Below, one piece after another: positions 7,138-37,925 of a stretch of DNA of 64,000 nt (within the stretch, counting starts at the first letter, position 1; every line of letters starts with the position of its first letter). This DNA is from Betaproteobacteria bacterium (GTDB lineage Bacteria; Pseudomonadota; Gammaproteobacteria; Burkholderiales; Rhodocyclaceae): contig JANNGP010000175.1 of the NCBI GenBank assembly GCA_031403915.1, positions 7,759 to 71,758 on the forward strand, written 5' to 3'. The notes under the pieces were generated by a model. It did not search any database, was not told where the DNA came from, and worked only from the letters and a program-made list of their open reading frames with translations. A program made the position numbers and the translations under genes.

Positions 7138-8709
7138 TCAGTTATCGATCAGCGACGACGTCTGCACGCCGATGCGCACGTTGCCCCAGTGCTTGCCAGC
7201 CACCATCAGCGGGAAGGCCATGTCGGACACGATTTCTCCGGTATCGCGCAGGTAGGTCTGTAGCAGGAGCGGGTCAGTATTGGCGGCGGCGCGTGTTTCG
7301 GTACCGTTCGCAAAGAAGCGCCTAGAGCGGTTGCCAACCAGATCGCGCTCGTAGTCGCCGGTCAGCGGCTCGCAGCGATTGTGCGACGGGCAATAGCCGT
7401 CGTTCGCCACGGGTATGCAGAAAAAAGTGGCCGGGATTTCCTTGAAATAGCGCTGCATGATCGGTTGCACACGCTGGTGCACGGCATCGTCGTAGCGGGT
7501 CGTGAATTTTTGCGGCTTGGTATTCGATATTTCGCGGTAGTTCTTGTCGAAGACATCAACACCACTGTCAGCGACGGCCTGAAGTTCACGTTGCATTTCG
7601 TCGCGAAAGCGCTCGCACAGGAGCAATGTTTTTTCGAGCGAACCACGACCAATCTTGCAGTTCGACACTTCCCGCATGACGAATTCAGCCTCATGCGAAA
7701 GATCAGTGGTGGCCTTCTCGGCGGCCTGCATGCGCTGGGCGACAGCCTGGCTGTGCGCTCGGATCTCGGTGACACGCGCATGTACGTTGACGTTGTTGCT
7801 GACGATTTCCTGCAGCGCCGTCGAGATAGTAGCCAGCGCCGTGGCCGATTCCTCGAAATCGCCGACAAGGCGGCCGAAGTGCCCCGCCGCTTTTTCGACA
7901 ACTCCCTGTGAATGCACGGTGTCCTCGCTGATCACCGCGGTTTCGGTCTGGATATGCTCGACCTGAGCACGCATGCCGCTGATGTCGTCGCTGATCTGGC
8001 CGGTGGACTGCTTCACCTTCTCGGCCAGCTTCCTGACTTCATCAGCAACCACGGCAAAGCCACGGCCGGCCTCGCCCGCGCGGGCCGCCTCGATGGCGGC
8101 GTTGAGAGCCAGCAAATTGGTCTGGTCGGAAATTTCCTTGATGACGCCGACGATGGCCTGGATACTCTCGGAACGATTGTTGAGATGGTGGACGTTGTCG
8201 CGGAAGTCTTGAACCTTCTGCTTTACGCTGGCGATGCGCCGCGAGGCATCCTGCATCTCGCCGTAGGCTTCGTGGGCGTGCGCCAGATTATCCTCGGTCA
8301 GCCCGGCGATTCGCGTCGCGCTGTCAGACGCGGCGGCAAGTGATTCGCTGGCTCGTGTCGACGCCTCGTAGACGCCCTTAGCCAGCTCTTCCTGCTCCTG
8401 CGCGCGCGTATTGACTTCTGCAATCTCCTTGCGCACGCCGCCCGAGCTGAAGGCGATCGACAGCGTGTGCGAGCGCACGTCGCCCAGCATCTTCTGAAGT
8501 TTTTCGAGGAAGCTGTTGAAGCCACGAGCAATCGGCGCCGACGCCCCCGTCGCGTCGAGATTCTGCGAAAAATCTGCAGCCTGCCCGCCAAGGCGGTCAA
8601 AATACTCGGCGACGACATCCCGAACAGCAGCACGCCCACGCAGCAACGCCATGCCTGCTGCGCCGGCAACGAGACCGGCAAGCAAGCAACCGATTGAAGT
8701 GGCATCCAT
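7138..8709 (-). CDS. Methyl-accepting chemotaxis protein with an extra C-terminal domain
   Basis: [35 protein letters not shown] signature; one N-terminal hydrophobic segment; about 150 extra residues after the signalling domain; start moved to ATG 8709 with a GGGAGA RBS. Confidence 0.88.
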
Positions 8710-8764
8710 GATTGTCTCCCCTACCGTCGTCTTGAACGGAGCCCAGCATCTGTAAACCTGTGCA

Positions 8765-9751
8765 TCATCGCATAAGAATAGTGGAAAACGACGCGTCATA
8801 GCGCTTAAGTAAATTATCAATGTCAGGTGGCGCACGCAAGACCCGCACCTCGCTGTATAGCGCGTCGGCATCTGCAAAGGTTGTGCGTAGCGAGCCCAGC
8901 CAGAGCTTCAGCCGCCCCGGTGCATGATGCGGCTGTACCCGCGCCTGAATCTGCGCCCAGAAACTCGCGATCAGCACGAGACATTCCGGCCAGTCCGCCG
9001 CGCGATCTGCGGGCAGCACTTCTCCGGCGTTACTGGCCTTGATCCGCCGTGCCAGAAAGGGGTCGGTGACCGCACCGCGCCCGATCATCACATCAGCGCA
9101 ACCGCTCACTTCACGGCAACGCGCGTAATCCTGCGGCGTCCACACCTCGCCATTGGCGATCACCGGAATGCGCACCGCTTCACGAATGTGTGCCACCCAC
9201 TCCCAGTGTGCGGGCGGCTTGTAGCCTTCGAGTTTGGTCCGCGCATGTACAACGAGCGAGGCGGCACCCGCGGCCTCCATGGCTCGTGCGCAATCGAGCG
9301 CCTTGCCGGTATCCGCAACGCCGAGCCGCATCTTGGCCGAGACGGGAATGTGTGCCGGCACGACCGCGCGCACGGCCGCGACGATACGTTGAATACGCTC
9401 CGGCTCATCGAGCAGGATCGCGCCGCCGCCATGCAGATTGACCGTCGGTGCCGGGCAACCAAAATTGAGATCGATGCCGACCGGGCCGAGTGTTGAAAGT
9501 TGAGCCGCATTGTCGGCCATGCACGGCGGATCACTGCCGAGCAACTGCACGACAACCGGCGTACCGGCACGCGTGCGGCAGCCGCTGGCCAGCTCCGGGC
9601 ACTTGCGCAGAAAGGTGCGTGGTGGCAGCAAGGAGCCGGAAACGCGCACGAACTCGGTCACCGCACCATCGTAGCCACCAGCCTGCGTGAGCACGTCGCG
9701 CAGAACGTAGTCTGCCAGGCCTTCCATCGGCGCCAGAAACAGCTTACTCAT
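8765..9751 (-). CDS. dusC: tRNA-dihydrouridine synthase C
   Basis: [33 protein letters not shown] and VIANGEVWT motifs. Confidence 0.9.
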
Positions 9752-22118: not shown

Positions 22119-22583
22119 ATGGAACTGAATTTACCTCAACTCACCGTATTCAAATACAAGCATGGCGACAGTGTTCCGCTGTCGCCAAAGCGCAAGCTGC
22201 TCTTCATCGTCAGCCTGATGCTGGCGCCCTTCATCGTGTACTTTGCCTTTCCGCCGGGGCTGATTGCGGCGGCGATTCCCTTCGTGGTGTTTTTCGGGCG
22301 CAGCGGCACGCTGGAACTCGGCCCACGCTACCTGATCTGCGGCGACACCATCCTCTATTACGCCAATGTGACGCAGCTGACCTTGCAGGAGGCCGAAGGG
22401 CGGCTCTCGCTGCAAACGGCGAGCGGCAAGCCCTTCGTGATCGAGCGAGGGAAATTCCCGACCAATGCGCGCAAGAAGCCCAAGATCGCGGCCAATCAGG
22501 CGGCCAAATTCGCCAAGGTTTCGGCACGGATCGTCGAGAAGGTGCGGCGCACATCGCCGGCAAACTCAGCTGCGGGTGCCTGA
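22119..22583 (+). CDS. Hypothetical membrane protein
   Basis: 154 aa from ATG 22119 with AGAGA upstream; two hydrophobic segments then a soluble basic domain; ends 4 nt before the radical SAM start. Confidence 0.65.
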   Translation: MELNLPQLTVFKYKHGDSVPLSPKRKLLFIVSLMLAPFIVYFAFPPGLIAAAIPFVVFFGRSGTLELGPRYLICGDTILYYANVTQLTLQEAEGRLSLQTASGKPFVIERGKFPTNARKKPKIAANQAAKFAKVSARIVEKVRRTSPANSAAGA

Positions 22584-22587
22584 TCTG

Positions 22588-24447
22588 ATGAATGCCGCCG
22601 CGCCGGCTTTCCGGCGCAACATCCACCTGCTCTATGTGCCGACGCTCGGTTGTAACCTCGATTGCGCCTATTGCTACCTCGGCGAGCAGACCACCGAGGC
22701 GGCGATCAAGGTCGACGCCGGTCGTGCCGTGGCCACGCTGCGCCACACGCTCGATGCCCTGCGCGCTGCCGGTGTGCTGGCCTTCAACGTGTCGCTGCAC
22801 GGCGGCGAGGTGACGACGCTGCCGGCAGCGGTGCTCGACGAATTGTTCGCGATGATCCGCGGTCATTACCTCGAACACTTCGATGCGATCAACGCGCTCG
22901 GTCACAAGAAATCGGCGCCGCACATCAAGACCAACCTCTACAAGTTCTCGCCTTTCTACGAATTGTTTGACCGGCACAAGGTCTCGATTAGCGCCAGCAT
23001 CGACCTGCCGCTTGCGCTGCACGCTCGCTACCGCACAACGCGCGGCGGCAAGGACTGGCTGGACAAAACACACGAGAACATCCGCCTGCTGGCGCGCTAC
23101 CCGCACGCCAAAAAGATTTCGGCCACGCTGTGCGGTGAGCATCTTGCCGACATCCCGGCCATCGTGCGCGATATCCGCTTCATTCACGATGAACTGGGTT
23201 TCGACATGAACCAGTTCAACATCATGTTTGCTTTTGCCTCCGAGCTGAACCGCCAGCGCCAGGGCGAGGCGGCGTTCACGCCGGCGACACCGCAACAACA
23301 GCAGGTACTCTACGACGCGCTACAGGCCGAATTTGCCGGCACCGATCTGGAAGATGGCCTGCGCCGCAACTGGTTCGACGAGTTCAAGCCGAGCTACTGC
23401 ACCAATGCCTTCAATTGTGGCGAGCGCTTTTATCTCCTGCAAAGCGATGGCTCGGTGTATTCCTGCGTGCGCGGGCAGGGCATCGAGGAATTCCGCTACG
23501 GCAATGTTTTTGAAGAACCCATCGACGACATCCTTGCCAACGGTGCGCGCAAGATCGCAGCGATCCATCAGGCGCACGGCTTTGATTCCAACTGTCAGCA
23601 GTGCAACCATCTTGCACTGTGTCATACCGGCTGCCCGGTGGTTAAATTCCAGAGCGGCAGCGGCCGTTCATACACCTGTGATTTGCAGAAGGTAATCTAT
23701 GCCGATAACCCGATGTCCTACCCGGCGGCCTCCCCAGACGCGCAGCGCGAGGACGCCCGCCAGTACCGGCTCGGCATGCACCCGGTGCTGGCCTTTGCTG
23801 CACAGGAGGAGAAGCCGGTGAAACCCATGAACGCGGTAGTGCTGCCCAACGACCTCGCTGAAGACAAGAACGCCCTGCGTGCGATCATCAATGCCGATCC
23901 GGTTTTGCAGTCACTCTATCGCGACGATGCCTTCGTGCTGGAACTACGCGGCGAGCTGATTCCGCTCGCCTCGCAGATTCTCAAGGCACAGACAACCTGG
24001 CATACGCTGGTCTCCGGTGACCGCATCGTGGTGCATGTGGCGCGTGAACTGTTCGACGCAAATTGCGAGGAACCGATCCGCAATACCCTTTACTTGCAGA
24101 TGTTGCGTGACACGCCGGTCGTCTATGGCGACGAGCAGCGCAGCAAGCAGGAGCATGTGTTCACCTACCAGTTGTTCGCCCACTGCCTGCAGCCGAGCGA
24201 CCGGCTGGGTGAAGGGTATCTGATGGCTGATCTCTCCGGCCTGATTGAACTGCACCGCGCGCACTACCGGCGGGGCGTGCTGAACAATCTGTTCTTCACC
24301 ACCCTGATGTTGCGCGAGTACCATTACCAGAAGCAGAAGGGCAACGCCTTCTACCATATTCAGGCGATCAACCTGCCGTTCCAGAATTTCGAATTTAATT
24401 ATTTCAACTATCTCAACCCCCATGCCGGGCAAGGAGAACTCCCATGA
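22588..24447 (+). CDS. Radical SAM/SPASM-domain protein with long C-terminal extension; putative peptide maturase
   Basis: CNLDCAYC (CX3CX2C), SLHGGE, and SPASM cysteines CTNAFNC...GSVYSC...CQQCNHLALCHTGC...YTC; start moved to ATG 22588. Confidence 0.9.
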   Translation: MNAAAPAFRRNIHLLYVPTLGCNLDCAYCYLGEQTTEAAIKVDAGRAVATLRHTLDALRAAGVLAFNVSLHGGEVTTLPAAVLDELFAMIRGHYLEHFDAINALGHKKSAPHIKTNLYKFSPFYELFDRHKVSISASIDLPLALHARYRTTRGGKDWLDKTHENIRLLARYPHAKKISATLCGEHLADIPAIVRDIRFIHDELGFDMNQFNIMFAFASELNRQRQGEAAFTPATPQQQQVLYDALQAEFAGTDLEDGLRRNWFDEFKPSYCTNAFNCGERFYLLQSDGSVYSCVRGQGIEEFRYGNVFEEPIDDILANGARKIAAIHQAHGFDSNCQQCNHLALCHTGCPVVKFQSGSGRSYTCDLQKVIYADNPMSYPAASPDAQREDARQYRLGMHPVLAFAAQEEKPVKPMNAVVLPNDLAEDKNALRAIINADPVLQSLYRDDAFVLELRGELIPLASQILKAQTTWHTLVSGDRIVVHVARELFDANCEEPIRNTLYLQMLRDTPVVYGDEQRSKQEHVFTYQLFAHCLQPSDRLGEGYLMADLSGLIELHRAHYRRGVLNNLFFTTLMLREYHYQKQKGNAFYHIQAINLPFQNFEFNYFNYLNPHAGQGELP

Positions 24448-25951: not shown

Positions 25952-26737
25952 ATGCAGAAACTCTCGAAACTTGCAGCCGCACTGATCGTCGGTGCCATGA
26001 TGTCGGCTTCGGCGATGGCTGCCCCCGATACGTTTGTAACGGTCAATGGCGTTGCCGTTCCGCAAAGCCTCGCCAATGTCTTCATGGCCGAACAAAAAGC
26101 CCAGGGCGCACCTGACACACCAGAACTAAAAAAAGCCGTGCGTGAAGAACTGATCCGGCGCGAACTGTTGATTCAGCAAGCCAAAAAGGCCGGCATTGAT
26201 AAGAAACCAGAGATCGCCGCACAGGCTGATGCGGCACGCCAAGCCTTCCTGGTACGCGCTTATGTCCAGGACTACGTTGCCAAGAACCCGATCAGTGATG
26301 CTGTGTTAAAAGCAGAATACGACAAAATCAAGGCACAACTCGGCAACACCGAATACAAGGCACGTCATATTCTGGTTGTTGGCGAAGAGGATGCCAAAGC
26401 CATCATCGCCAACCTCAAGAAGGGTGCCAAGTTTGAAGAACTCGCCAAGCAATCGATTGACCCGGGCTCCAAGGACAATGGCGGCGATCTTGGCTGGGCC
26501 AGTGCCGGTAATTTTGTAAAACCCTTTAGCGACGCACTCGTTAGTCTGAGCAAGGGAAAGTTCACCGAGACTCCGGTAAAAACCGAGTTTGGCTTCCACG
26601 TTATTCTGCTTGAAGACAGCCGCCCGCTGGCCATCCCGCCGTTTGACGAAATCAAGCCGCGCCTGCTCCAGCAAGCACAAGGGCAACAAATCAACAAGAT
26701 GGTTGAAGGTCTGCGCGCCAAGGCTAAGGTCGAATAA
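25952..26737 (+). CDS. PpiC-type (parvulin) peptidyl-prolyl isomerase, exported
   Basis: Signal peptide; YKARHILV, SIDPGSKDNGGDLGW and TEFGFHVI. Confidence 0.92.
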   Translation: MQKLSKLAAALIVGAMMSASAMAAPDTFVTVNGVAVPQSLANVFMAEQKAQGAPDTPELKKAVREELIRRELLIQQAKKAGIDKKPEIAAQADAARQAFLVRAYVQDYVAKNPISDAVLKAEYDKIKAQLGNTEYKARHILVVGEEDAKAIIANLKKGAKFEELAKQSIDPGSKDNGGDLGWASAGNFVKPFSDALVSLSKGKFTETPVKTEFGFHVILLEDSRPLAIPPFDEIKPRLLQQAQGQQINKMVEGLRAKAKVE

Positions 26738-26760
26738 GACGCAAGCGCTACACAAACAAT

Positions 26761-26801
26761 ACGCCGGGACGGCCTCAAGCCTCCCGGCGTTGTGCTTTTT
26801 T
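26761..26801 (+). terminator. Intrinsic terminator after the PPIase gene
   Basis: Stem ACGCCGGGA/TCCCGGCGT followed by TGTGCTTTTTT. Confidence 0.7.
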
Positions 26802-26867
26802 GTACTTGGCTTCGGGCTAACAAGGGGTGAGAATAGGCCGGTGCCTTTCCTGTTCTTCAGAACCGAC

Positions 26868-29800
26868 ATGTGCTCACTCACGATCCGACTTGCTCTCTGT
26901 TTGTTACTGACCTTCGGTCTAAATGCGCAAGCCGCTGAAGATGAGGAAGGTTCTCTTCCGACCGATTTCAGCACAACGGCAGAACTCGAAAAACAGATCG
27001 CCGCCCCGCCGCCCGGTGCGGATAACCCGCAAGCACTGTGCATCTTCCTGCACAAACGCGGTGCAGCCTACTCCCGTCTCGGCCTGTACGACAAAGCCAT
27101 TGCCGACTTGAAACAGGGGCTCGACTTGAAGCAGCCGGCCACGCCGGACAGGTGGTGTGACCGCTTCCTTATGCAAGCACAGATCAGGGGCGCCCTCTTT
27201 TCATCCGGGGACTGGCTGGCGCTGACCGACTTCGCCCAGGCCGTGAGTGACGAGAAAATACACAGCAACAAATGGAACTACTTTTTTGTCCAGTTCTGGC
27301 TGATCGATGCCCATATCCATCTGGGTAAGCTACGCGAGGCGGAACAGGCTTTACAGCGTGCTGGCGAGATTATTCCGGCATTGCGTCAGCAAAACAAAGG
27401 CTGGGTCGCATACGGTGCCAATGTCCTCGAACGGCATAGCGCGTATGCGGCACGCATGCAGATGCTGCGTGGCAATTATGTTGAGGCCGAACGCTTCCAG
27501 AGGCAGGCGTTGCGCTACGCGCGTGAACAGCTTGACTATTCGCTGACCAACCGCTCTACAGAAAGCCTTGATAATCGAAACGCAACCCACTACCTGACTA
27601 CGCGCAAACGCGAGTTGGCCGGCATCCTTTCAGCCCAGGGGAAAACCGGAGAAGCCGAAATTCTGGCCCGCCAGGTACTGCAGGAAACTCTCTCACGCTC
27701 AGCGAAAAACACTTGGATCGCTGCTAACGCACTTAGCCTGCTGGGCAAGATCAAGATACAGCAAGGACAGATTGTCGAAGCACTGCGGCTGCAGGAACAG
27801 GCGCTCAGCGCGCTGGAAAACTCAGGTGCCCGCCCCTACTCAACCGCAATTGCCGATTTGCGTCTACAAATCGGCTTCCTGCTTGGCGTGCAGAATCGCT
27901 GGACGGAAGCGCTGAAAATCTATGAACAGCGGGATCAGGGGCTGCGCGGCAACGCCGCGCAGTTTGCCAGAACAGGATCAAACAACCTCACCTGGGCGAT
28001 GGCGCTGCTCAAAAACCAGCGCATTGATGACGCTGAAAAAATGCTACGCAGCATCATCAACTACAACCTCAAAAAGCCCTTCGTCGACCCGCTGTATTTT
28101 GCCCATCTGCGTGGCTATCTGGCCGTGATTCTGGTAGCCGCGGGCAAGAACAACGAAGCACTGGCCGAATTCCGCGAAGCCTTTCCCATCCTTGTTCGGC
28201 AGGCGGAAACCGACAACAGTTCCGAGAATGGCGGTTTCGTGCGCCAGTACCGACTGCGCCTGATCGCCGAGGGTTACCTTGAGTTACTCTCCCAACTGGC
28301 TGTCAATCAATTGGCTCCATCCGGTTTCGACCCGGTTGCTGAGGCCTTTCGGGTGGCTGAAGCCTCACGCGGATCAAGCGTGCAACTGGCTATTGCCAGC
28401 AGCGCCGCACGTGCCAACTTGCCCGACGCCACGCTTGCCAATCTGGCACGTCACGAACAGGACAACGCCAACCAGATCAGCGCGCTCAACAAGCTGATGA
28501 ATCGCCTGGCCTCTGCGCCGGACAATCAGCGCCCGGATAAAATCATTGCTGATATCCGTAGTGATATAGAGCGACTGGAGAAACAGCACACCGCCCTGCG
28601 TCGCGAACTTGCCGAACGCTATCCGGCCTACGCCGAACTGGTTTCCCCAAAACCACCTGCTCCTGCCGACATCCAGAAGGTTCTGAACAAGGATGAAGCC
28701 GCTGTCGCCATTTATGTCGCCGAACAGAAAACCTATGTATGGACGATTACCCCGGCGCGTATCGCTTTCCGCGCGATCGACCTGCCCCGACAACAAGTCG
28801 ACAAGCAGGTCACCTCCGTGCGTCGTGCATTCGACCTGAGTGGCCCTGGTATCCTCCCCTTCGACACGACCAGTGCGCAAAGCCTGTATGCGACGCTTCT
28901 GGCTCCTGACGAAGCGCTGTGGGCTGAGGCCAAACTGCTCAACATCATCCCGCACGGAACACTCGGGCAACTACCTTTCGCCGTTCTACTCACATCAAAT
29001 CAGCCGGGTAAAAATATCGCCGAACAACCCTGGCTGCTGAAAAAAGTCGCTGTCGCTCAGCAACCCTCCGCTGGCACATTGATCGCCCTGCGCGCACAGG
29101 GACGCGCCGAGGTGAAACGCCGGCCGTTCGTTGGCTTTGGCGATCCGCTATTCATTGTCCAGGCACCGTCCAAAGTTGCAGGCACGCGCTCGGTGCGCAA
29201 CCTATCCATCCGGTTCGGGGGAGATAGCGCACCTTCCGAGACTGAAGCCGCGACGCTCCTGCGGGGTTTTACACAACTGCCGCCTCTGCCTGACACGTCG
29301 GTAGAGTTGAACGACATTGGAACAACCCTGGGAGCCGATTTAAAGACCGACATCTTCCTGGGCAAACAGGCCACGGAATACAACGTCAAGCGCAGTGATT
29401 TATCGGCTTATCAAGTCGTGGCCTTTGCCACGCACGGCCTCGTTCCCGGCGATCTGCGCGGCCTTGATCAACCCAGCCTGGCCATGGCCAACCCCTCGCT
29501 CACCGACGACAAGGAAAACGACGGATTCCTGACTCTGAGCGAAGTGCTTGGCCTCAAGCTCAACGCCGACTGGGTTGTGCTCTCGGCATGCAATACCGCC
29601 AGTGGCGACGGCAAGAACGAGGAAGCCGTGTCCGGCCTCGGGCGCGCCTTCTTCTTCGCCGGATCGCGCCGCCTGCTGGTCTCCTACTGGCCGGTGGAGA
29701 CCGTCTCGGCACGTCTGCTGACCACCGAACTTTTCAGACGCCAGACCCAGCAACCGGAGGAGTCCAAAGCCGAAGCCCTGCGCCACTCGATGCTGAAGCT

Positions 29801-29876
29801 GATGAGCAGTTCAAAGGACTACAGTCACCCGGCTTTCTGGGCGCCATTTGGCCTGATCGGCGACGCAGCGAGGTAG
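26868..29876 (+). CDS. TPR + CHAT (caspase-like) domain protein, likely exported
   Basis: Signal-peptide-like N-terminus from ATG 26868; TPR-like helices; CHAT motifs NIIPHGTLGQLPF, FATHG, VVLSACNT, SGLGRAFFFAG and HPAFWAPF. Confidence 0.88.
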   Translation: MCSLTIRLALCLLLTFGLNAQAAEDEEGSLPTDFSTTAELEKQIAAPPPGADNPQALCIFLHKRGAAYSRLGLYDKAIADLKQGLDLKQPATPDRWCDRFLMQAQIRGALFSSGDWLALTDFAQAVSDEKIHSNKWNYFFVQFWLIDAHIHLGKLREAEQALQRAGEIIPALRQQNKGWVAYGANVLERHSAYAARMQMLRGNYVEAERFQRQALRYAREQLDYSLTNRSTESLDNRNATHYLTTRKRELAGILSAQGKTGEAEILARQVLQETLSRSAKNTWIAANALSLLGKIKIQQGQIVEALRLQEQALSALENSGARPYSTAIADLRLQIGFLLGVQNRWTEALKIYEQRDQGLRGNAAQFARTGSNNLTWAMALLKNQRIDDAEKMLRSIINYNLKKPFVDPLYFAHLRGYLAVILVAAGKNNEALAEFREAFPILVRQAETDNSSENGGFVRQYRLRLIAEGYLELLSQLAVNQLAPSGFDPVAEAFRVAEASRGSSVQLAIASSAARANLPDATLANLARHEQDNANQISALNKLMNRLASAPDNQRPDKIIADIRSDIERLEKQHTALRRELAERYPAYAELVSPKPPAPADIQKVLNKDEAAVAIYVAEQKTYVWTITPARIAFRAIDLPRQQVDKQVTSVRRAFDLSGPGILPFDTTSAQSLYATLLAPDEALWAEAKLLNIIPHGTLGQLPFAVLLTSNQPGKNIAEQPWLLKKVAVAQQPSAGTLIALRAQGRAEVKRRPFVGFGDPLFIVQAPSKVAGTRSVRNLSIRFGGDSAPSETEAATLLRGFTQLPPLPDTSVELNDIGTTLGADLKTDIFLGKQATEYNVKRSDLSAYQVVAFATHGLVPGDLRGLDQPSLAMANPSLTDDKENDGFLTLSEVLGLKLNADWVVLSACNTASGDGKNEEAVSGLGRAFFFAGSRRLLVSYWPVETVSARLLTTELFRRQTQQPEESKAEALRHSMLKLMSSSKDYSHPAFWAPFGLIGDAAR

Positions 29877-29999: not shown

Positions 30000-32900
30000 T
30001 TAACCCACCCACTTACGCGCATTGCAGAACATCCGCAGCCACGGCGAATCCTCACCGAGATTCTCTGGATGCCAAGACATCTGCACCGTGCGGAACACAC
30101 GTTCCGGGTGCGGCATCATGATCGTAAAGCGCCCGTCCGCCGTCGTCACACCCGTAATGCCCGCCGGCGAACCATTCGGATTGTAGGGATAGACTTCGCT
30201 CGGATTGCCAGCGTTATCGAGATAGCGCATGGCAACGAGCACTTGGCTCTGCTGCGCCGCAGAATCAAACTCGGCACGCCCTTCGCCGTGCGAGACGACT
30301 ACCGGCATGCGGCTGCCAGCCATGCCGCCAAAAAACATCGACGGCGACTCGGGCAGTTCGACCATGACGAAGCGCGCCTCGAACTGCTCGACCTTGTTGC
30401 GCTCAAAGCGCGGCCACGCCTCGGCACCAGGTATCAGGCTCTTCAGCGCACTCATCATCTGACAGCCGTTACACACACCCAGCGCAAAGGTATCGCCACG
30501 ACCGAAAAAGGCTGAAAACTCGTCACGCGCGCGAGGATTGAACAGGATGGTTCGTGCCCAGCCCTTGCCCGCGCCGAGCACGTCGCCGTAGGAGAAACCG
30601 CCGCAAGCGACAGCGCCCTTGAAGTCATCCAGCTGCACGCGGCCGGAAAGGATGTCGCTCATATGCACGTCGACCGAAGCAAAGCCGGCGCGATCAAAGG
30701 CCGCCGCCATTTCAACATGCCCGTTGACACCCTGCTCGCGCAGGATGGCGACCTTCGGGCGCTTGCCCGTATTAATGAACGGCGCGGCAATGTTTCCCGC
30801 CGGATCGAAGCTCAAGGACATCGAAAGGCCGGCGTCCGACGTATCGAGAATGCGGTCGTATTCCTGTTGCGCACATTCCGGATTGTCGCGCAGCGACTGC
30901 ATGCGGAAAGTCGTTTCCGACCAGGCACGGTGCAGATCAACACGCTTCTCGGCGAGTATGGGCTTGGCGTTGCGGATGACATGCAGTTCGTCGCTCGAAT
31001 TCGGCGCGCCGATGACATGCGCACAGTCTCCTAGACCCGCTTCGCCGAGGATGCCCATCACCCTGGCGCGGTCATCGCGGCGAATTTGCAGCACGGCGCC
31101 CAGTTCTTCGGTGAAGAGTGCGCGCATGACGCTTTCGGAATCACCATCAGTGCACAAGTCATCGATGTTCAGTGAGACACCGCAATGCGAGGCGAAGACC
31201 ATCTCGGCCACGGTAGCAAACAAACCACCGTCAGAGCGGTCGTGATAGGCCAGCAGCAGTTGTTCGTTGTTGAGTTTCTGGATAGCGCCGAAGAAATTGA
31301 CCAGACACTGCGTATCAGGCACGTCCGGCGCATGGCTGCCGGTGGCATTGAACACCTGCGCCAGCGCCGAGCCGCCGAGGCGATTGCGTCCGGTACCGAG
31401 ATCGATGAGCAGCAGGTCACTTTCACCGGCATCAAGCTTTAATTGCGGCGTCAGTGTGCGGCGCACATCCGGCACCGACGCAAAGGCGGTGATGATCAGC
31501 GACAGCGGTGACACCACTTCGCGGCCTTCCCACGCCGTACGCATCGAGAGCGAATCCTTGCCAACCGGAATCGACACGCCGATCTGCTGGCAGAAATCGG
31601 ACACCGCGCGCACCGTGTCGAACAGACGGGCATCTTCACCGGGCACGCCGGCCGGTGCCATCCAGTTGGCTGAGAGTTTCACGTCGCCGAGTTTGGCGAT
31701 ATTGGCGGCGGCAATATTGGTCAGCGCTTCACCGACGGCCATGCGGCCCGACGCCGGCGCATCGAGAATCGCCACCGGCGTGCGCTCGCCCATGGCGAAG
31801 GCTTCGCCAAGGTTGGTCATGTAACCCATGGTGGTCACTGCCACGTCGGCCACCGGCACCTGCCACGGCCCAACCATCTGGTCACGCGCCGTCATGCCAC
31901 CCACGGTGCGGTCGCCGATGCTGATGAGGAAGGTCTTGTCGGCCACGGCCGGCAGACGCAGCACACGATAGACCGCATCCTTGAGTTCGATCGCCGTCGG
32001 ATCGAAAGGCAGGTCGATGCTGTCGATGCGCGTCACGGCACGCGTCATGCGCGGCGGCTTGCCGAGCAGCGCATCCATGTCCATATCAACCGGGTTGTTG
32101 CCGAAATGCCGGTCAGCCACGATCAGCCGATTATCGTCTGTCGCCACACCGACCACGGCAAACGGGCAGCGCTCGCGTTCGCACATGGCCTCGAACTCGG
32201 GCAGACGGCTCGGCGGAATGGCCAGCACGTAGCGTTCCTGCGCTTCATTGCTCCAGATTTCGGCCGGCGACATGCCCGGCTCTTCGATGTTCACATCACG
32301 TAATTCAAAGCGGGCACCGCAACCGGCACCGTGTGCGAGTTCCGGGAAGGCGTTGGAAATACCACCGGCACCGACGTCATGCACCGAGAGAATCGGATTG
32401 CCCTGCCCCGGCGTGGACGCGTCGCCAACAGGCGTGCCCATTTGCCAGCAACGGTCAAGCACTTCCTGCGCGCGTCGCTGCATTTCCGGGTTGCCACGCT
32501 GTACCGAAGCAAAGTCAAGATCTTCGGCGTTGCTGCCGGTACTCATCGAACTGGCGGCACCGCCACCCAGACCAATCAGCATACCGGGGCCGCCCAGTTG
32601 AATGAGCAGGGTGCCAGGCGAAAAACGTTCGGCCTTGTGCGACTGGCTGGCCGAGATATTGCCCAAACCACCGGCGACCATGATCGGCTTGTGATAGCCG
32701 CGCACGACAGCGTCCTTGCCTTCACCGACGCGTTGCTCGTAGGTACGAAAATAACCGGTCAGATTGGGTCGGCCGAATTCGTTGTTGAATGCTGCGGCGC
32801 CGATCGGACCTTCGAGCATGATGTCGAGCGCGCTGGCAATGCGCGACGGGCGCCCGTAACCAGCCATTTCTTCTTCCCACGGCTGCACCGCATCAGGCAG

Positions 32901-33917
32901 ATAGAGGTTGGATACCGAGAAGCCGCACAGGCCGGCCTTGGGCTTGGAGCCGCGCCCGGTCGAGCCTTCGTCGCGAATCTCGCCGCCCGAACCGGTGGCC
33001 GCGCCGGGGAAGGGCGAAATAGCCGTCGGGTGGTTGTGCGTTTCAACCTTGGTCAGTATGTGCGTGAGCTCTTCGGTCCAGGCATAGCTGCCGTCGGCAC
33101 CGGGATAGAAGCGCGCCGTCGACGCGCCTTCAAACACCGAGGAGTTGTCGGAATAGACCACGACATTGCCTTCAGGATGCGCCGCATGCGTTTCACGAAT
33201 CATGCCGAACAGCGTTTCACTGCGCACTTCACCATCAAGCACCCACGAGGCGTTGAAGATCTTGTGACGGCAATGCTCGGAGTTGGCCTGCGCAAACATC
33301 ATCAATTCAACGTCAGTCGGATTGCGCCCGGTCTTGGTCACGAAGAGATCGACGAGATAATCGATTTCGTCGTCGGAAAGCGCGAGGCCGAGGCGGGTAT
33401 TGGCTTCGAGCAGCGCATCGCGCCCGCCGGCCATGAGATCGACGGTCATCATCGGCTTGGGCGAAAAATGACGGAAGAGTTCGGTTGTTTCGTTAAAACC
33501 ACCAAGCACCGTTTCGATCATGCGGTCGTGGAGCAGTGTTTCTACTTGCTTGCGGGCTTGCGCCGTCACGCCGGTAATGCGGTAGGCAATGCCGCGTTCG
33601 ATGCGCTCGATGGCGGCCAGCCCGCAGTTCCACGCAATATCGGTGGCCTTGGACGACCACGGCGAAATAGTGCCGATGCGCGGCGTAACGAGGAAGAGTT
33701 CGCCAGACTCTGCGGCCTCTGCGGAGCGCTCTTCAAGCAGAGATGCCAGTTGCTTGAGTCCTTCGTCGCTCAATGCCGCTTTGAGCTTGGCAACGTGCCA
33801 GTAATCGGCACTGACGACACTCGCAGCCGGCGCAATGGCCTGAATACGTTGCTGCAAACCCTGCAGACGAAAATCGGAAAAAGCGGGAGCCCCGCGCAGA
33901 AAAAGGATGTCGGCCAT
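30000..33917 (-). CDS. purL: Phosphoribosylformylglycinamidine synthase (large type)
   Basis: [34 protein letters not shown] and MPHPER. Confidence 0.98.
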
Positions 33918-34208
33918 GGTGAGCTACAAAAAAGGGGCAGGAAACCTGCGTTGAAACAAGGAGAAGGCTTCATTATAGCTGAGAGCGACCTGAGCCGAAC
34001 GGCAAGCAAGGTAGATGGACATGCTTTTTGGTCGATGCAAAAATCCGCAAAACCACCGTTCAGGGTTGAAGCAAATTAAGATAAACTTATCAAATGATGC
34101 ATTTGGAGCCATTGTCAGCTTTCTAATAATCAGAACTCAAGGCGCATCAACAATTCTTCTACCCAAATTTCGGCAGCGACATCTACAACATTTGAGGATG
34201 ATGTAAAA

Positions 34209-36371
34209 ATGACTATCTCGCGCAAGATTATTTTTCTGGTGTTATCAGCACTACTCACCTCTGTGATTATTTTTTGTGTCGCTTTTTTCGGATTTTCTGG
34301 GATAGAGACGGAGGTTGGTCACCTCGCCAGCAAGGTGGCTGCCGACAACGAAGACATCCTCTCCATCCGCGAGGCTCTAAGCTCGGCACGTAGCTGGATG
34401 ATCGGCATACTTGCAGTCGCCCTGATGCTTCTAAGTGCACTGGGTTTTATGCTGATGCGCTCGATAGTCAAACCGCTCAAGGACATGGAGAGTGCAATCA
34501 GCAAGACCGCGGATCAACTCGACTTTACCGAAATAATTCAGGTCGATTCGGATGACGAAATCGGCAACACCCTTAAAACCTACAATCGCCTGCTCACCCG
34601 CCTGCGCGGCAGTTTCATCGAGTCCCAGACGTCCATCGCCAACCTGATGGAAGTCACAGAAGAAGTCGATCGGTCCTCACGCAAGATCGCGCGCAATTCA
34701 ACACTACAGAGCGACGCCTCATCCAACATGGCCTCGGCCGTCGAGGAAATGACCGTCAGCATCTCAATGGTTGCCGATCAGGCCGCAGATGCCAGCAAAC
34801 ACACCGAAAAATCACGCCAGATCGCCGAAAATAGTGCCGGAATCATCCTCACTACCGTCAACTGCATCAAGCTCATCTCCGAGACGGTGGGTGAAGCGGC
34901 CACCCGCATCAAAGCCCTGCGCGCCGACTGTGACAGCATTTCTTCGATGGCCAAGATCATTCGTGAGATTGCCGACCAGACCAATCTGCTGGCCTTGAAT
35001 GCCGCCATCGAAGCCGCACGCGCTGGCGAACAGGGTCGGGGCTTTGCCGTGGTCGCCGATGAAGTGCGCAAACTAGCCGAGCGCACCACGCTGTCCACGC
35101 AGGAGATCAGCGATCTGCTGAAACGCATGCAGGAAAGTTCACGTCTGGCGGTTGATAGCATGACGCGCACCGAAAAAGCCGTGGATGACGGTGTCGTCCA
35201 CGCCCGTCAGGCTGGCGAGTCGATCGAGCAGATTAAAACCGGGGCTGATGCTGCCGCCATCGTAGTGTCTGACATCTCGTCCGCCATGCGCGAACAGGAG
35301 GCCGCCAGTGCGGCTATTTCCCGCAATATCGAACAAATCGCCCAGATGAGTGAACAAAATTCTGCTGCTGCCGGCACCTCAGCCGCCAGTGCCGGACGCA
35401 TGACGGAATTTGCGGCCGGAATGACACAGGCTCTTTCCGCTTACAAGGTGGAGACTGGCGTCAAGAAAATCGTCCTGCGTTGTTCTGATATTTACAACCC
35501 ATCTCACCCGGCGGTGCGTGCGACACAAGTCATGTCCGACTATCTCAACCAGACAACGCAGGGCCGGATAACGCTCAAGGTCTTCGCTGAAGGTCAAATG
35601 GGGCAAGATGTGGAAACGCTGGAGAATGTAAAAAAAGGCACGCTGGACATGGTGCGTACGAACTCCGCGTTTCTCATCAAGGATTGCCCTTTGCTCATCC
35701 TGCCCGGACTGCCTTTTATGTTCAACTCGGTCGAACATAAAGAGCGCGCTCTCGATGGCGCCCCGGGTCAGGAAATCACCGCTTCACTTGAATCTTCCGG
35801 CCTTGTTTGCCTGGCCTTCTACGAAGCCGGTGCGCGCTGCTTCTATACGAATTCACCGATCCGGTCGGTCGCGGATATGCGTGATTTGAAGATACGCAGC
35901 ATGCCGTCGGATCTGTGGCTGGCCATTATCAGCGCCTTCGGTAGCCGGCCGGTACCGCTGCCTCAGGACCAGGTGATTCACGCTTTGAAATCCGGCCTGA
36001 TTGATGCTGCCGAAAATTCACTGCTCAATTTTATGGGCCAGAAACACGTCGGTCATTTCAAGTATTACAACATTACCGACCACTCGTTGTCGCCTGAAAT
36101 GCTTGTGTTTTCGAAAAAGAAATGGGACACCCTCACCCCGGAGGATCAGGCGATCATCAGGCAGGCGGGGAAAGAAGCCGTCACCGCCCAGAGACGCTTC
36201 TTGCGTGAAAGTGAAGATGTCGCACGCAAGGACGCGATGGCAGCAGGCACGATCTTTAACAAGGATGTGGACAGGGGTTCATTTGAAAGAGTCATTCGCC
36301 CGGTATACGACAAATTCATTACCAGCCAGCAGCAGAAGTCCGTAATGCAGGCGATCAAGTCGATACGATAG
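34209..36371 (+). CDS. Methyl-accepting chemotaxis protein fused to a C-terminal TRAP DctP-type solute-binding domain
   Basis: Two TM helices, HAMP (DDEIG) and the MCP signature [23 protein letters not shown]; then in frame a DctP-like domain with [34 protein letters not shown] and [18 protein letters not shown]. Confidence 0.88.
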
Positions 36372-36428
36372 CGTTGCGTTGTGCAGGCTCAGGCAGGCCT
36401 GCACAGGCAATGATTGTCGCCCGCCACC

Positions 36429-37925
36429 ATGCTCTCTCTCCCGCTCTACCGTTCTGCCAGTCTGCGCCATATCGAAGCGGCGGCCGCTGACCAGCCGCTC
36501 ATGCAGCGCGCCGGGCGCGCCGCAGCGGATCTGGCCACGACCATTTGTGCCGCTCGCGGCGCAGCCGTACTCATTCTTGCCGGCCCCGGAAACAATGGTG
36601 GAGACGCCTTCGAGGTCGCGCACGAGTTGCGCGAACGTTTTTTTGATACACATATTATCTTCGTAGGCAACGCCAGAGATCTGCCCATGGATGCGGCAGA
36701 CGCGTACCAGCGCTTCAGTAAGGCTGGTGGCAGAACGCTTGCTGCGATTCCAGAGATTCCTCGCTGGTCGCTGATCATCGACGGCCTGTTTGGTATCGGT
36801 CTGCAACGCGAAGTGACTGATCCCTACGCCGGGCTGATCCGCAGCGCCAACGCACTGGCCGCACGTGATGCTTGCCCGCTGCTGGCGCTCGATTGCCCGA
36901 GCGGGCTGGATGCCGATACCGGCAAGCTGCACGGCGCTGCCATCCACGCCTCGCACACCATCACTTTTATTGGCGGCAAGCCCGGGCTGTTCACTGCCGA
37001 CGGCCCTGATCACTGCGGCGAGATAACCGTCGCATCGCTCGATATCGATGCGCTACTCACGGGTCAGAACAGTGGCGCCACGATCGGACTTGATCTTTTT
37101 GCACAGCAGCTGCGCCCGCGGCGCCAAAACAGCCACAAAGGAATCCACGGAAACGCCGGCATCCTCGGCGGGGGACAGAGCATGGTGGGTGCCGCACTGC
37201 TTGCCGCACGCGCCGCCCTCCGGCTGGGCAGTGGCAGAGTTTACGTTGGCCTGCTCGACACACACGCCCCGGCCTTCGACACGCAACAACCCGAACTCAT
37301 GTTGCGCAAACCAGAAAACCTGTTTACCGCCGGGCTCACCGTGCTGGCCTGCGGCCCCGGACTGGGTACTAGCCATGGCGCACGCACTCTGGTGAAAAAT
37401 TCCTGTGCACTGGGCATCCCGCTTATCCTCGATGCCGACGCACTCAACCTGATTGCCGCTGAAGCGGATCTGCACACTGCAGTCGCTACGCGCAAGGCAT
37501 CCACACTGCTCACACCGCACCCGGCAGAAGCCGCACGCCTGCTTGATTGCGACGTCGCGACGATTCAGGCGGATCGGCTCACCGCCGTGCTCGAACTGGC
37601 CACACGCTTCAACGCCTATGTCGCACTCAAAGGCTGCGGTACTCTCGTGGCCTCACCCGACGGCGCATGGTTCATCAACACCAGCGGCAACCCGGGGCTG
37701 GCTACCGCCGGCAGTGGCGACGTACTCACCGGCATGGTTGCTGCCCTGCTGGCACAAGGCTGGCCGCCACTTGAGGCACTGCTGGCCGCTGTGCACCTGC
37801 ACGGCATTGCTGCTGATCGGCTCGTCGCACAAGGAACAGGGCCTATCGGACTCACTGCCGGCGAACTGATCGACAACGCACGCGCCTGTTTCAATGAATG
37901 GATGACAGAGCACAGTGCACAATAA
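36429..37925 (+). CDS. nnr: Bifunctional NAD(P)H-hydrate epimerase/dehydratase
   Basis: GPGNNGGD, DGLFGIG, DCPSG, CGPGLG, DADALN, TPHPAEAARLL and GSGDVLTG. Confidence 0.93.
   Translation: MLSLPLYRSASLRHIEAAAADQPLMQRAGRAAADLATTICAARGAAVLILAGPGNNGGDAFEVAHELRERFFDTHIIFVGNARDLPMDAADAYQRFSKAGGRTLAAIPEIPRWSLIIDGLFGIGLQREVTDPYAGLIRSANALAARDACPLLALDCPSGLDADTGKLHGAAIHASHTITFIGGKPGLFTADGPDHCGEITVASLDIDALLTGQNSGATIGLDLFAQQLRPRRQNSHKGIHGNAGILGGGQSMVGAALLAARAALRLGSGRVYVGLLDTHAPAFDTQQPELMLRKPENLFTAGLTVLACGPGLGTSHGARTLVKNSCALGIPLILDADALNLIAAEADLHTAVATRKASTLLTPHPAEAARLLDCDVATIQADRLTAVLELATRFNAYVALKGCGTLVASPDGAWFINTSGNPGLATAGSGDVLTGMVAALLAQGWPPLEALLAAVHLHGIAADRLVAQGTGPIGLTAGELIDNARACFNEWMTEHSAQ

Follow-up and report, generated by a model that had tools for sequence, protein, structure and literature searches.

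The stretch analysed here, 64,000 nucleotides (64 kb) of contig JANNGP010000175.1 from the betaproteobacterial assembly GCA_031403915.1 and called the window below, carries on its forward strand a gene whose product begins as a chemoreceptor (methyl-accepting chemotaxis protein, MCP) and ends as a DctP domain, the fold found in TRAP-transporter solute-binding proteins (SBPs). The locus raises a question: is this fusion genuine, and if so, what might a transport-type binding domain do behind the signalling hairpin of a receptor? In our interpretation, which was derived from sequence comparison and which we consider moderately probable, the protein is tethered to the membrane and works as a chemoreceptor that uses its fused cytoplasmic DctP domain to sense a carboxylate inside the cell, probably one of the hexuronate type, and drives transport-dependent taxis.

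Architecture, topology and integrity of the fusion

The open reading frame (ORF) at 34209..36371 (+) contains no internal stop codon. In a first-pass annotation it had been described as a single uninterrupted frame of 720 aa, and this was borne out by our reading of the frame, by an independently assembled contig that spans the junction and by about 70 clusters of fused proteins (both described below). The same annotation had named a first transmembrane (TM) helix, a loop of ~30 aa, a second TM helix, HAMP and MCP domains and then a complete DctP domain. Pfam and hydropathy analyses gave the same series, i.e., a two-helix anchor with a ~30-aa loop, HAMP, the MCP hairpin, an 11-residue linker and a complete DctP domain. 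An AlphaFold2 (AF2) model of the full-length protein, for which 71 family sequences served as the input alignment, had a pLDDT of 86 and a pTM of 0.63. The features of the gene are as follows.

34209..36371, + strand: MCP-DctP fusion gene, stop codon included (ATG start, 720 aa)
34227..34295, + strand: TM1, ~residues 7-29 (19-residue mean Kyte-Doolittle hydropathy up to 2.9; AF2 helix 3-42)
34296..34391, + strand: short loop or helical stub in the periplasm, ~residues 30-61 (net charge -3; pLDDT 54-64)
34392..34460, + strand: TM2, ~residues 62-84 (hydropathy; AF2)
34452..34607, + strand: HAMP domain, residues 82-133 (Pfam PF00672, 35 bits, E 1.6e-8)
34608..35435, + strand: MCP signalling hairpin, residues 134-409 (Pfam; AF2 helices 117-271 and 273-409)
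35280..35309, + strand: methylation-site-like motif in the C-terminal arm of the hairpin, residues 358-367 (single regular-expression match)
35436..35468, + strand: 11-residue linker, residues 410-420, from the last MCP helix to the first DctP strand (AF2 secondary structure)
35469..36368, + strand: complete DctP-type (TRAP family 7) solute-binding domain, residues 421-720, no signal peptide

Only two hydrophobic segments were detected in the protein, with nothing TM-like past residue 100 (hydropathy), and the charges around them fit the positive-inside rule (+2 in the N-terminal tail, -3 in the loop and +2 after TM2). Bacterial export signals sit at the N-terminus. Because no signal peptide or third TM segment, and no lipobox, precedes the DctP domain, the predicted topology places this domain in the cytoplasm together with HAMP and the hairpin, as had been proposed from the letters alone, and we infer the same location in vivo. 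An export signal that would allow the domain to be cleaved off and exported, a possibility raised earlier, was likewise absent ahead of it.

A periplasmic docking domain like that of Tar or Trg was not found in the fused protein, the corresponding segment being ~30 aa long and 28% conserved. Over the 71 sequences the start lies 72 to 134 residues ahead of the invariant D105, and a few residues are all that links the TM helices in some family members. Thus, the anchor loop is too short and too variable to be a conserved sensor.

HAMP was modelled as helix-connector-helix (48-103, 104-116 and from 117). In the hairpin, the N-terminal arm runs up to the tip at E274 (nt 35028-35030) and the C-terminal arm returns to L409. 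Residues 234-380 matched PF00015 MCPsignal with 139.1 bits (cut-off 34.6), and the tip motif is largely invariant over the 71 sequences. Each arm is ~135-140 residues long, counted from E274, and by such counting the hairpin would belong to the 40-heptad class. The methylation-like motif was found with the expression [ASTG][ASTG]xx[EQ][EQ]xx[ASTG][ASTG]. A CheR-binding pentapeptide at the C-terminus is impossible because the DctP domain takes up that end. When searched against NCBIfam, the N-terminal 410 residues gave a CtpM-like match (NF058645) with 207 bits, against an equivalog cut-off of 900.

The integrity of the gene was examined in metagenomic data. A freshwater-sediment run carries 98% of the sampled words of the stretch, and a 4.9-kb Logan contig, assembled independently from that run, covers 35045-36600 with 0 differences and 0 gaps. 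It spans the C-terminal hairpin arm, the linker and the whole DctP domain. The junction, which the first-pass annotation had left to read support, therefore lies inside this contig without differences and shows neither a stop codon nor a frameshift. Logan contigs break only at 34957-35130, the ultra-conserved MCP tip, where the word depth is 218 as opposed to ~10 in the flanks. This tip-coding region shares >=90% identity with many other MCP genes of the same metagenomes and is a place where assemblies would readily form chimeric joins. This tip repeat is the sole connection between the N-terminal half of the gene and the remainder; the existence of full-length homologues speaks for a correct join.

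A search of 5.8 billion proteins revealed the same MCPsignal+DctP architecture in ~70 full-length clusters at 35-65% identity, which answers the earlier suggestion that such architectures be looked for. The best full-length match was 65% identical, N-terminal part included. The clusters were mostly from Rhodocyclales and came from Formivibrio, Propionivibrio, Uliginosibacterium, Viridibacterium, Rhodocyclales metagenome-assembled genomes (MAGs), one Holophaga MAG and Alteromonadaceae. A 5-sequence alignment of the junction was used to search 185,579 species-representative genomes and detected 15 junction-spanning loci, nearly all in Rhodocyclales; local ORF checks showed that these are uninterrupted genes of 700-790 codons, including genes in isolate genomes of Propionivibrio, Uliginosibacterium and Viridibacterium. 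Given the ~70 clusters at 35-65% identity and the 15 loci, the fusion appears to be selected rather than an accident, and the sequence comparisons point to a real and conserved MCP-DctP receptor family. The family is rare and taxonomically narrow. As to whether the architecture had already been characterised, a literature search of incomplete coverage found neither an MCP-DctP fusion nor a cytoplasmic DctP domain described, and an earlier mention in a domain census is possible.

Two unusual cases were encountered in these searches. In Candidatus Dactylopiibacterium carminicum (L004, L005 and L018; L004 6001-8175), an MCP of 415 aa is accompanied by DctP fragments of 177 and 94 aa. The copy is broken in the identical way in two independent runs and the reference genome, and the locus is syntenic with that of Uliginosibacterium, with a ccm operon upstream and a free DctP gene downstream. 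It is likely that this is a pseudogenised, formerly fused gene in an insect symbiont. The other case, P0181 (UxuA+DctP, 707 aa), was considered as a second cytoplasmic DctP and was rejected: an intact lipoprotein signal peptide (…LLLASVLLASCGE…) separates its UxuA and DctP halves, so that P0181 probably arose by read-through or faulty gene calling from neighbouring uxuA and SBP genes. Even so, it places this DctP group in a uronate-pathway context.

The DctP domain and its probable ligand

Residues 427-704 matched PF03480 DctP from position 3 to 283 of the 286-position profile (219 bits versus 23.4, E 1e-64). In NCBIfam, the C-terminal part scored 198 bits versus 50 for TRAP_S1 and 177.8 bits, with a threshold of 175.05, for TIGR00787 dctP. 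AF2 gave a confident alpha/beta fold at 421-718, with pLDDT mostly >90. The signal peptide or lipobox by which TRAP SBPs are secreted is absent here and in all 71 family members. The DctQ/DctM partners are also missing: tblastn with queries from a related TRAP operon found no match to either protein in the window at E<=1e-3, in line with the first-pass annotation, which had seen no dctQ or dctM nearby, and neither gene was adjacent in the homologous loci examined. The window contains no second DctP. Since secretion and the DctQM partnership are both lacking, annotation as a transporter subunit does not fit, and the C-terminal part belongs to the DctP family by homology, not as a working part of a transporter.

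The motifs LKIRSM and AAENS, previously noted as retained, were located at residues 560-565 (nt 35886-35903) and 600-604 (nt 36006-36020), respectively. In TRAP SBPs an arginine pairs with the carboxylate of the ligand (PMC7660916, PMC4646407), an interaction common to nearly all of these proteins (PMC4646407), and in a study of uronate binding by STM3169 residues Arg150, Arg170 and Asn210 were singled out (PMC7660916). Equivalents of the three residues are present in the fused domain.

35835..35837, + strand: Arg543, equivalent of STM3169 Arg150 (Arg in 70/71)
35895..35897, + strand: Arg563, the conserved TRAP SBP arginine (SiaP Arg147 / STM3169 Arg170; 71/71)
36015..36017, + strand: Asn603 in AAENS, equivalent of STM3169 Asn210 / SiaP Asn187 (Asn in 63/71)

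The carboxylate-binding arginine that had been pointed out from the sequence corresponds to Arg563 and is invariant. It follows Arg543 by 20 residues, the same spacing as between Arg150 and Arg170 in STM3169. Glu602, next to Asn603, is kept in 69 of the 71 sequences, and AAENS aligns with AAENN of 4n8y and 4mhf.

The top seven sequence matches of the domain in PDB (4n8y, 4mhf/4mij, 4ovr, 4n15/4n17, 4ln5 and 4x8r; E 3e-73 to 2e-61) all appear to fall in the uronate-binding group. The matches that came next (4pf8, 4p1l/4p3l, 4xfe, 4ovq and 4x04) are probably for the most part uronate complexes as well. Ligands were confirmed from the literature for 4mhf, 4n8y and 4x8r: D-glucuronate and D-galacturonate are bound by 4MHF (Bpro_3107), and the structures 4N8Y and 4X8R contain galacturonate and glucuronate, respectively (PMC7660916, PMC11668362). 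Foldseek comparison of the AF2 domain with the same PDB entries gave TM-scores of 0.93-0.95 and root-mean-square deviations (rmsd) of 1.5-1.9 A over ~300 residues at 32-41% identity; for 4mhf/4mij, the target-normalised value was 0.95 with rmsd 1.5-1.6 A. By BLASTP the window domain is 41-42% identical to uronate-binding proteins (36-42% over the group), and the family consensus is 51-56% identical to them. Binders of C4-dicarboxylates, sialic acid and isethionate were matched at E 1e-18 to 1e-30, versus 1e-61 to 1e-73 for the uronate group. At 61 DctP positions conservation within the fused family is >=90%; 4n8y has the same residue at 53 of them and 4mhf at 50. Taken at face value, these similarities probably narrow the ligand class to hexuronate-like sugar acids.

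When the domain alone was used in a HMMER scan of 1.84 billion representatives, fused proteins ranked first and were followed by free-standing proteins of 322-327 aa (E 1e-60). Identity between deep branches of the fused clade is 30-41%. Nested in this clade were also two DctP proteins with neither an MCP part nor a signal peptide, P0126 (389 aa, with an acidic, low-complexity N-terminus of ~90 aa) and P0148 (322 aa), which may have been called too short or may descend from the fusion as free cytoplasmic DctP proteins.

Gene context in relatives is mixed but suggestive of a link to pectin and sugar acids. The neighbour table is a rough one, as greedy ORF picking in GC-rich loci takes some antisense ORFs. 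In three Uliginosibacterium species a secreted PL11 rhamnogalacturonan lyase is encoded two genes downstream of the fused gene (Pfam RGL11_C, E 4e-246), and in an Alteromonadaceae genome a pectate lyase gene is its divergent neighbour. In the Holophaga MAG the fused gene ends a same-strand run of MFS, enolase-superfamily dehydratase, DHDPS-family, NAD_binding_2 reductase and GD_AH genes, the last from the galactarate dehydratase / altronate hydrolase family; judged by the families present, this set looks typical of aldarate/uronate catabolism. The flanks in P. dicarboxylicus are also of sugar-acid type (TPP-enzyme, DHDPS, AP_endonuc_2, NAD_binding_2, ILVD_EDD, MFS and LysR genes). The closest free-standing paralogue in U. 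sediminicola (L022, 47% identity) is encoded in a lactonase-dctP-dctQ-dctM operon near a pectinesterase gene and is a genuine transporter subunit. Other homologous loci are of housekeeping character, with genes such as dapC/dapD/dapE and smc.

An orphan periplasmic DctP gene lies directly downstream of the fused gene in Uliginosibacterium (L001 12302-13288) and Dactylopiibacterium (L004 8335-9327). Its product is 328-330 aa long and has a clear signal peptide, and no dctQM genes stand beside it. It belongs to a different, structurally uncharacterised, SiaP-like branch (best PDB match E 1e-29). The Uliginosibacterium orphan was considered as the source of the fused domain and was ruled out as a distant paralogue on the same evidence.

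Coupling to the hairpin and alternative explanations

The pattern of constraint along the protein bears on how the DctP domain might be coupled to the receptor. Mean pairwise identity among the 71 proteins is 28% in the membrane anchor, 40% in HAMP, 53-54% in the methylation helices, 80% in the hairpin tip region, 30% in the linker and 54% in the DctP domain. The DctP domain is therefore as constrained as the signalling helices. The distance between two invariant residues on either side of the junction, N384 in the C-terminal arm and P434 in DctP, is 51 aa in 55 of the 71 proteins and 52 aa in the other 16. Because the linker is variable in sequence and constant in length, the junction argues for mechanical or geometric coupling rather than a loose tether. 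By the counting from the tip, the C-terminal hairpin helix ends level with the HAMP/bundle junction, and the DctP domain would be attached where the flexible CheR-tethering tail starts in E. coli receptors.

A second lineage of the same architecture was also found. In a neighbour-joining tree of DctP domains, P0133 lies outside the main fused clade and groups with 4n8y and 4mhf; its DctP domain is 50% identical to 4n8y and 35% to that of the window protein, and the two MCP halves share 28% identity. A database search with P0133 yielded four more clusters of this type (P0267-P0270, 56-74% identity). The MCP half of P0133 is closest (60-65%) to 4HB_MCP receptors of Telmatospirillum and Magnetospirillum (Rhodospirillales-type), and that of the window protein to 4HB_MCP receptors of Propionivibrio and Uliginosibacterium (57-60%). 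In both lineages an anchor of two TM helices and a minimal loop is followed by HAMP-MCP-DctP, and the tip motif lies 167 residues ahead of the first conserved proline of DctP in 5/5 P0133-type proteins versus 170 in the window protein. As the MCP and DctP parts differ between the lineages and the spacing is nearly equal, the two fusions would be of independent origin under the same geometric constraint, and apparently converged on the same layout. Gene contexts of P0133 and P0269 were uninformative. We tentatively put forward, as a possibility that falls somewhat short of probable, that a TRAP subunit moved to the cytoplasm at least twice independently and was wired with the same spacing to the hairpin, and that the cells navigate by internal pectin-derived uronic acid.

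The proposed mechanism is the following. The receptor would join the chemoreceptor array (polar) via its conserved tip, and the TM helices with their short variable loop would serve only as an anchor that localises it. The cytoplasmic DctP domain, 11 residues past the C-terminal methylation helix and just under the membrane, would be the only plausible sensor. It might bind a cytoplasmic carboxylate, D-galacturonate, D-glucuronate or a close sugar-acid relative, imported by a separate transporter. Flytrap-style closure of its lobes could alter the packing of DctP on the HAMP/methylation-helix cap or on the DctP domain of the partner subunit, and this change could shift the on/off balance of the CheA kinase. 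Adaptation would proceed through the EQ-type site(s) of the methylation helices, for which there was one consensus match. Since sensing would take place in the cytoplasm, uptake of the ligand by the separate transporter would be a precondition of the response, and the outcome might be transport-dependent taxis to sources such as decaying pectin. Ligand identity, coupling mechanism and chemotactic output are what we infer from these comparisons; with respect to the ligand, a hexuronate-type compound is more likely than a central metabolite.

Several points weigh against this proposal. Its weakest step is the transmission of a signal from a domain that is held by one end, and the coupling is speculative; the arrangement of the domains relative to each other does not seem to be fixed by the AF2 model (pTM 0.63). 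An identity of 41-42% is a level at which the specificity of TRAP SBPs may shift, and our comparison of ligand contacts with the uronate pocket is confined to the Arg/Arg/Asn triad. Neighbour clustering across 17 fused loci revealed no universally conserved neighbour, with synteny at the genus level only, and most homologous loci are without pectin or uronate genes. The window copy itself has no pathway context, its neighbours being housekeeping genes (purL, nnr/YjeF, EamA, metZ, purF), and no che or flagellar genes were found in the 64-kb window. In addition, the argument for a second origin draws on a neighbour-joining tree that carries no support values and on pairwise identities.

It is conceivable, though we think it unlikely, that the same architecture with the same cytoplasmic sensing serves a central carboxylate (pyruvate, lactate, a C4-dicarboxylate or a 2-oxo acid) and thereby general metabolism-dependent taxis. 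The housekeeping surroundings of the window copy and of most homologous loci, with no uronate pathway nearby, are consistent with such a ligand, as are the identity of just 41-42% to uronate-binding proteins, the strong divergence of the fused clade (30-41% between deep branches) and the generality of the Arg-carboxylate pairing in nearly all TRAP SBPs (PMC4646407). However, the best seven PDB matches are all from the uronate group and other binders are far weaker, both arginines and the asparagine of the uronate triad are kept, and pectin or sugar-acid genes occur beside the fused gene in four unrelated lineages. A hexuronate-type ligand is preferred on these grounds.

A second alternative concerns the output only and is compatible with either ligand: the receptor might feed a non-flagellar chemosensory pathway (cyclic di-GMP, biofilm or twitching). 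Ordinary 4HB_MCP-type receptors of Propionivibrio and Uliginosibacterium are the nearest relatives (57-60%) of the MCP module, which also resembles the P. aeruginosa malate chemotaxis receptor CtpM (207 bits, cut-off 900), and a 40-heptad hairpin, a class assigned here by counting, with a methylation-like site is typical of flagellar-taxis receptors. A non-flagellar output is rather improbable in this light, even though chemoreceptors are known in such alternative pathways (PMC8050422), the window has no che or flagellar genes and a sigma-28 promoter consensus was not found upstream.

The DctP domain could also have ceased to be a sensor and become a structural or regulatory appendage (an array-packing spacer, a docking site or a modulator of adaptation), with the stimulus entering at the membrane, at HAMP or via neighbouring receptors. 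The C-terminal position of E. coli-type receptors bears the CheR/CheB tether. Replacement of this tail by DctP would suit an appendage, and so would attachment by one end, which leaves no evident route for transmitting closure. A purely structural role, however, would not need an arginine kept in 71/71 sequences (Arg563) or polar pocket residues shared with ligand-bound crystals. Moreover, the full-length domain fits closed, ligand-bound structures at a TM-score of 0.95, and other candidate sensors are missing, the periplasmic loop being variable and nearly absent in some members. We regard this explanation as quite improbable and retain DctP as the candidate sensor.

Finally, an artefact (chimeric assembly, missed stop or frameshift, decaying pseudogene) or a domain that is cleaved and exported is highly improbable and largely refuted: the metagenomic source, the contig breaks at the MCP tip (34957-35130), the broken gene of Candidatus Dactylopiibacterium and the UxuA-DctP read-through in the database would agree with it, but the junction (~35436-35468) is within a single 4.9-kb contig without differences, the same ORF is intact in isolate genomes and ~70 clusters with the N-terminal part conserved (65% to the best match), and no signal peptide, lipobox or additional TM segment comes ahead of DctP.

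The locus, known systems and implications

In the window, the fusion gene is on its own, with divergent purL on one side and an nnr (YjeF-type) gene downstream, beyond which lie EamA, metZ, purF, cvpA and folC; the remaining genes are of housekeeping and signalling types. The upstream features are as follows.

30000-33917, - strand: purL, divergent neighbour
33918..34208: AT-rich intergenic region of 291 bp between divergent purL and the receptor gene, presumed promoter region

GC content is 0.46-0.47 in 33750-34500 (spacer upstream of the gene plus its 5' end) and ~0.53-0.59 in the fusion gene overall, as compared with 0.60-0.65 in purL and nnr. Based on this contrast, the gene may have been acquired horizontally and inserted among housekeeping genes. 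A sigma-70-like match at 34016-34044 was no better than expected from shuffled sequence, no sigma-28 consensus was detected upstream of the gene, and a terminator scan gave chance-level results only. A perfect 9-bp inverted repeat (TGTGCAGGC…GCCTGCACA) with an 8-nt loop occurs at 36380-36405, 9 nt past the stop codon and shortly ahead of the nnr start (36414); a T-tract is lacking, and the repeat was not called a terminator by the scan.

Some other genes of the window should be mentioned. A second MCP gene is located at 7138-8877 (-), with a probable start near 8709. Its MCPsignal domain covers residues 208-372 of the long ORF and is followed by a C-terminal extension of ~170 aa that had no confident Pfam match; a very faint hint of a single-Cache domain (sCache_3_2, E 0.033) was sub-threshold. 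Given this extension, the organism may own more than one receptor with a sensor domain beyond the hairpin. Upstream of purL, 26589-29876 (+) encodes a 1095-aa protein that combines TPR repeats with a CHAT (caspase-like) domain at its C-terminus. A 660-aa ORF at 22465-24447 (+) has weak radical-SAM/SPASM matches (E 5e-5 and 2e-4) and is followed by a 154-aa ORF that matched no family.

Chemoreceptors with a domain after the hairpin are known, e.g., Azospirillum Tlp1 (PilZ), Desulfovibrio DcrH (hemerythrin) and Helicobacter TlpD (CZB). MCP+PilZ and MCP+hemerythrin architectures have been listed (PMC12268683). The receptors named share with the fused protein a globular domain on the C-terminal end of the hairpin and a cytoplasmic input that bypasses the membrane, but they sense cyclic di-GMP, O2 or zinc/oxidants, whereas in the fusion a two-lobed DctP domain of 300 residues is expected to respond to a nutrient-type organic acid. 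The new element would be the DctP fold as a C-terminal cytoplasmic sensor; chemoreceptors with C-terminal sensors were already known.

Among TRAP SBPs with entries in the PDB, the closest sequences are hexuronate binders: Bpro_3107 (4MHF/4MIJ), BBta_0128 (4N8Y), Xaut (4OVR), Bamb_6123 (4N15/4LN5) and Rsph17029_2138 (4X8R), as well as Salmonella STM3169. They have the same fold, and the fused domain is likewise complete, from the first strand to the last helix, with equivalents of the Arg/Arg/Asn triad. These proteins, however, are secreted, carry a signal peptide and are encoded with dctQM; the fused protein has 420 chemoreceptor residues instead, with dctQM absent in 64 kb. With 41-50% identity to working transporter subunits, the fused domain would be a recent recruit from the DctP/TRAP family.

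Participation of binding proteins in chemotaxis is itself known. Examples include MBP-Tar, RBP/GBP-Trg and DppA-Tap (PMC8050422), a proposed SatE-MCP pair in Treponema (PMC8461474) and pectin taxis via a pectin-binding protein in Sphingomonas A1 (PMC7055323). In MBP-Tar-type systems, too, a transporter-type SBP gives the chemoreceptor its ligand specificity, but that SBP is free and periplasmic and docks on a periplasmic domain. In the fusion, the SBP is covalently attached, with membrane side and receptor end both reversed, and there is no periplasmic domain. The 4HB_MCP receptors of Propionivibrio and Uliginosibacterium (537 aa) are 57-60% identical over the shared half, HAMP plus signalling module, and the N-terminal part of the fusion gives a CtpM-like NCBIfam match. 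These receptors and P. aeruginosa CtpM sense through a periplasmic four-helix bundle of ~150 aa, and nothing follows their hairpin, whereas the fusion has a ~30-aa loop and the DctP domain.

The effector domains of LacI/GalR and LysR regulators are cytoplasmic folds of the periplasmic-binding-protein (PBP) type. In these proteins, as proposed for the fusion, a flytrap fold is joined to an output module and senses small molecules inside the cell. They differ in that they are ancient, distinct PBP families on DNA-binding domains; in the fusion, a DctP domain is coupled to a kinase-control hairpin.

NCBI names these ~700-aa relatives 'TRAP transporter substrate-binding protein DctP', which is misleading for the fused proteins. 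Chemoreceptor signalling is known almost wholly from periplasmic sensors that push TM2 and HAMP. The family, with a two-lobed module on a fixed 11-residue link, offers a natural test of direct drive on the methylation-helix cap; expression of the domain should be easy, and the gene occurs in cultured bacteria (Propionivibrio dicarboxylicus, P. limicola, several Uliginosibacterium species and Viridibacterium curvum). If our interpretation is true, this would be the first DctP-family domain with a cytoplasmic job and a concrete candidate molecule for taxis that depends on metabolism or transport, a behaviour for which few sensors are known, and it would represent a new input route to the chemotaxis array that bypasses the membrane and HAMP.

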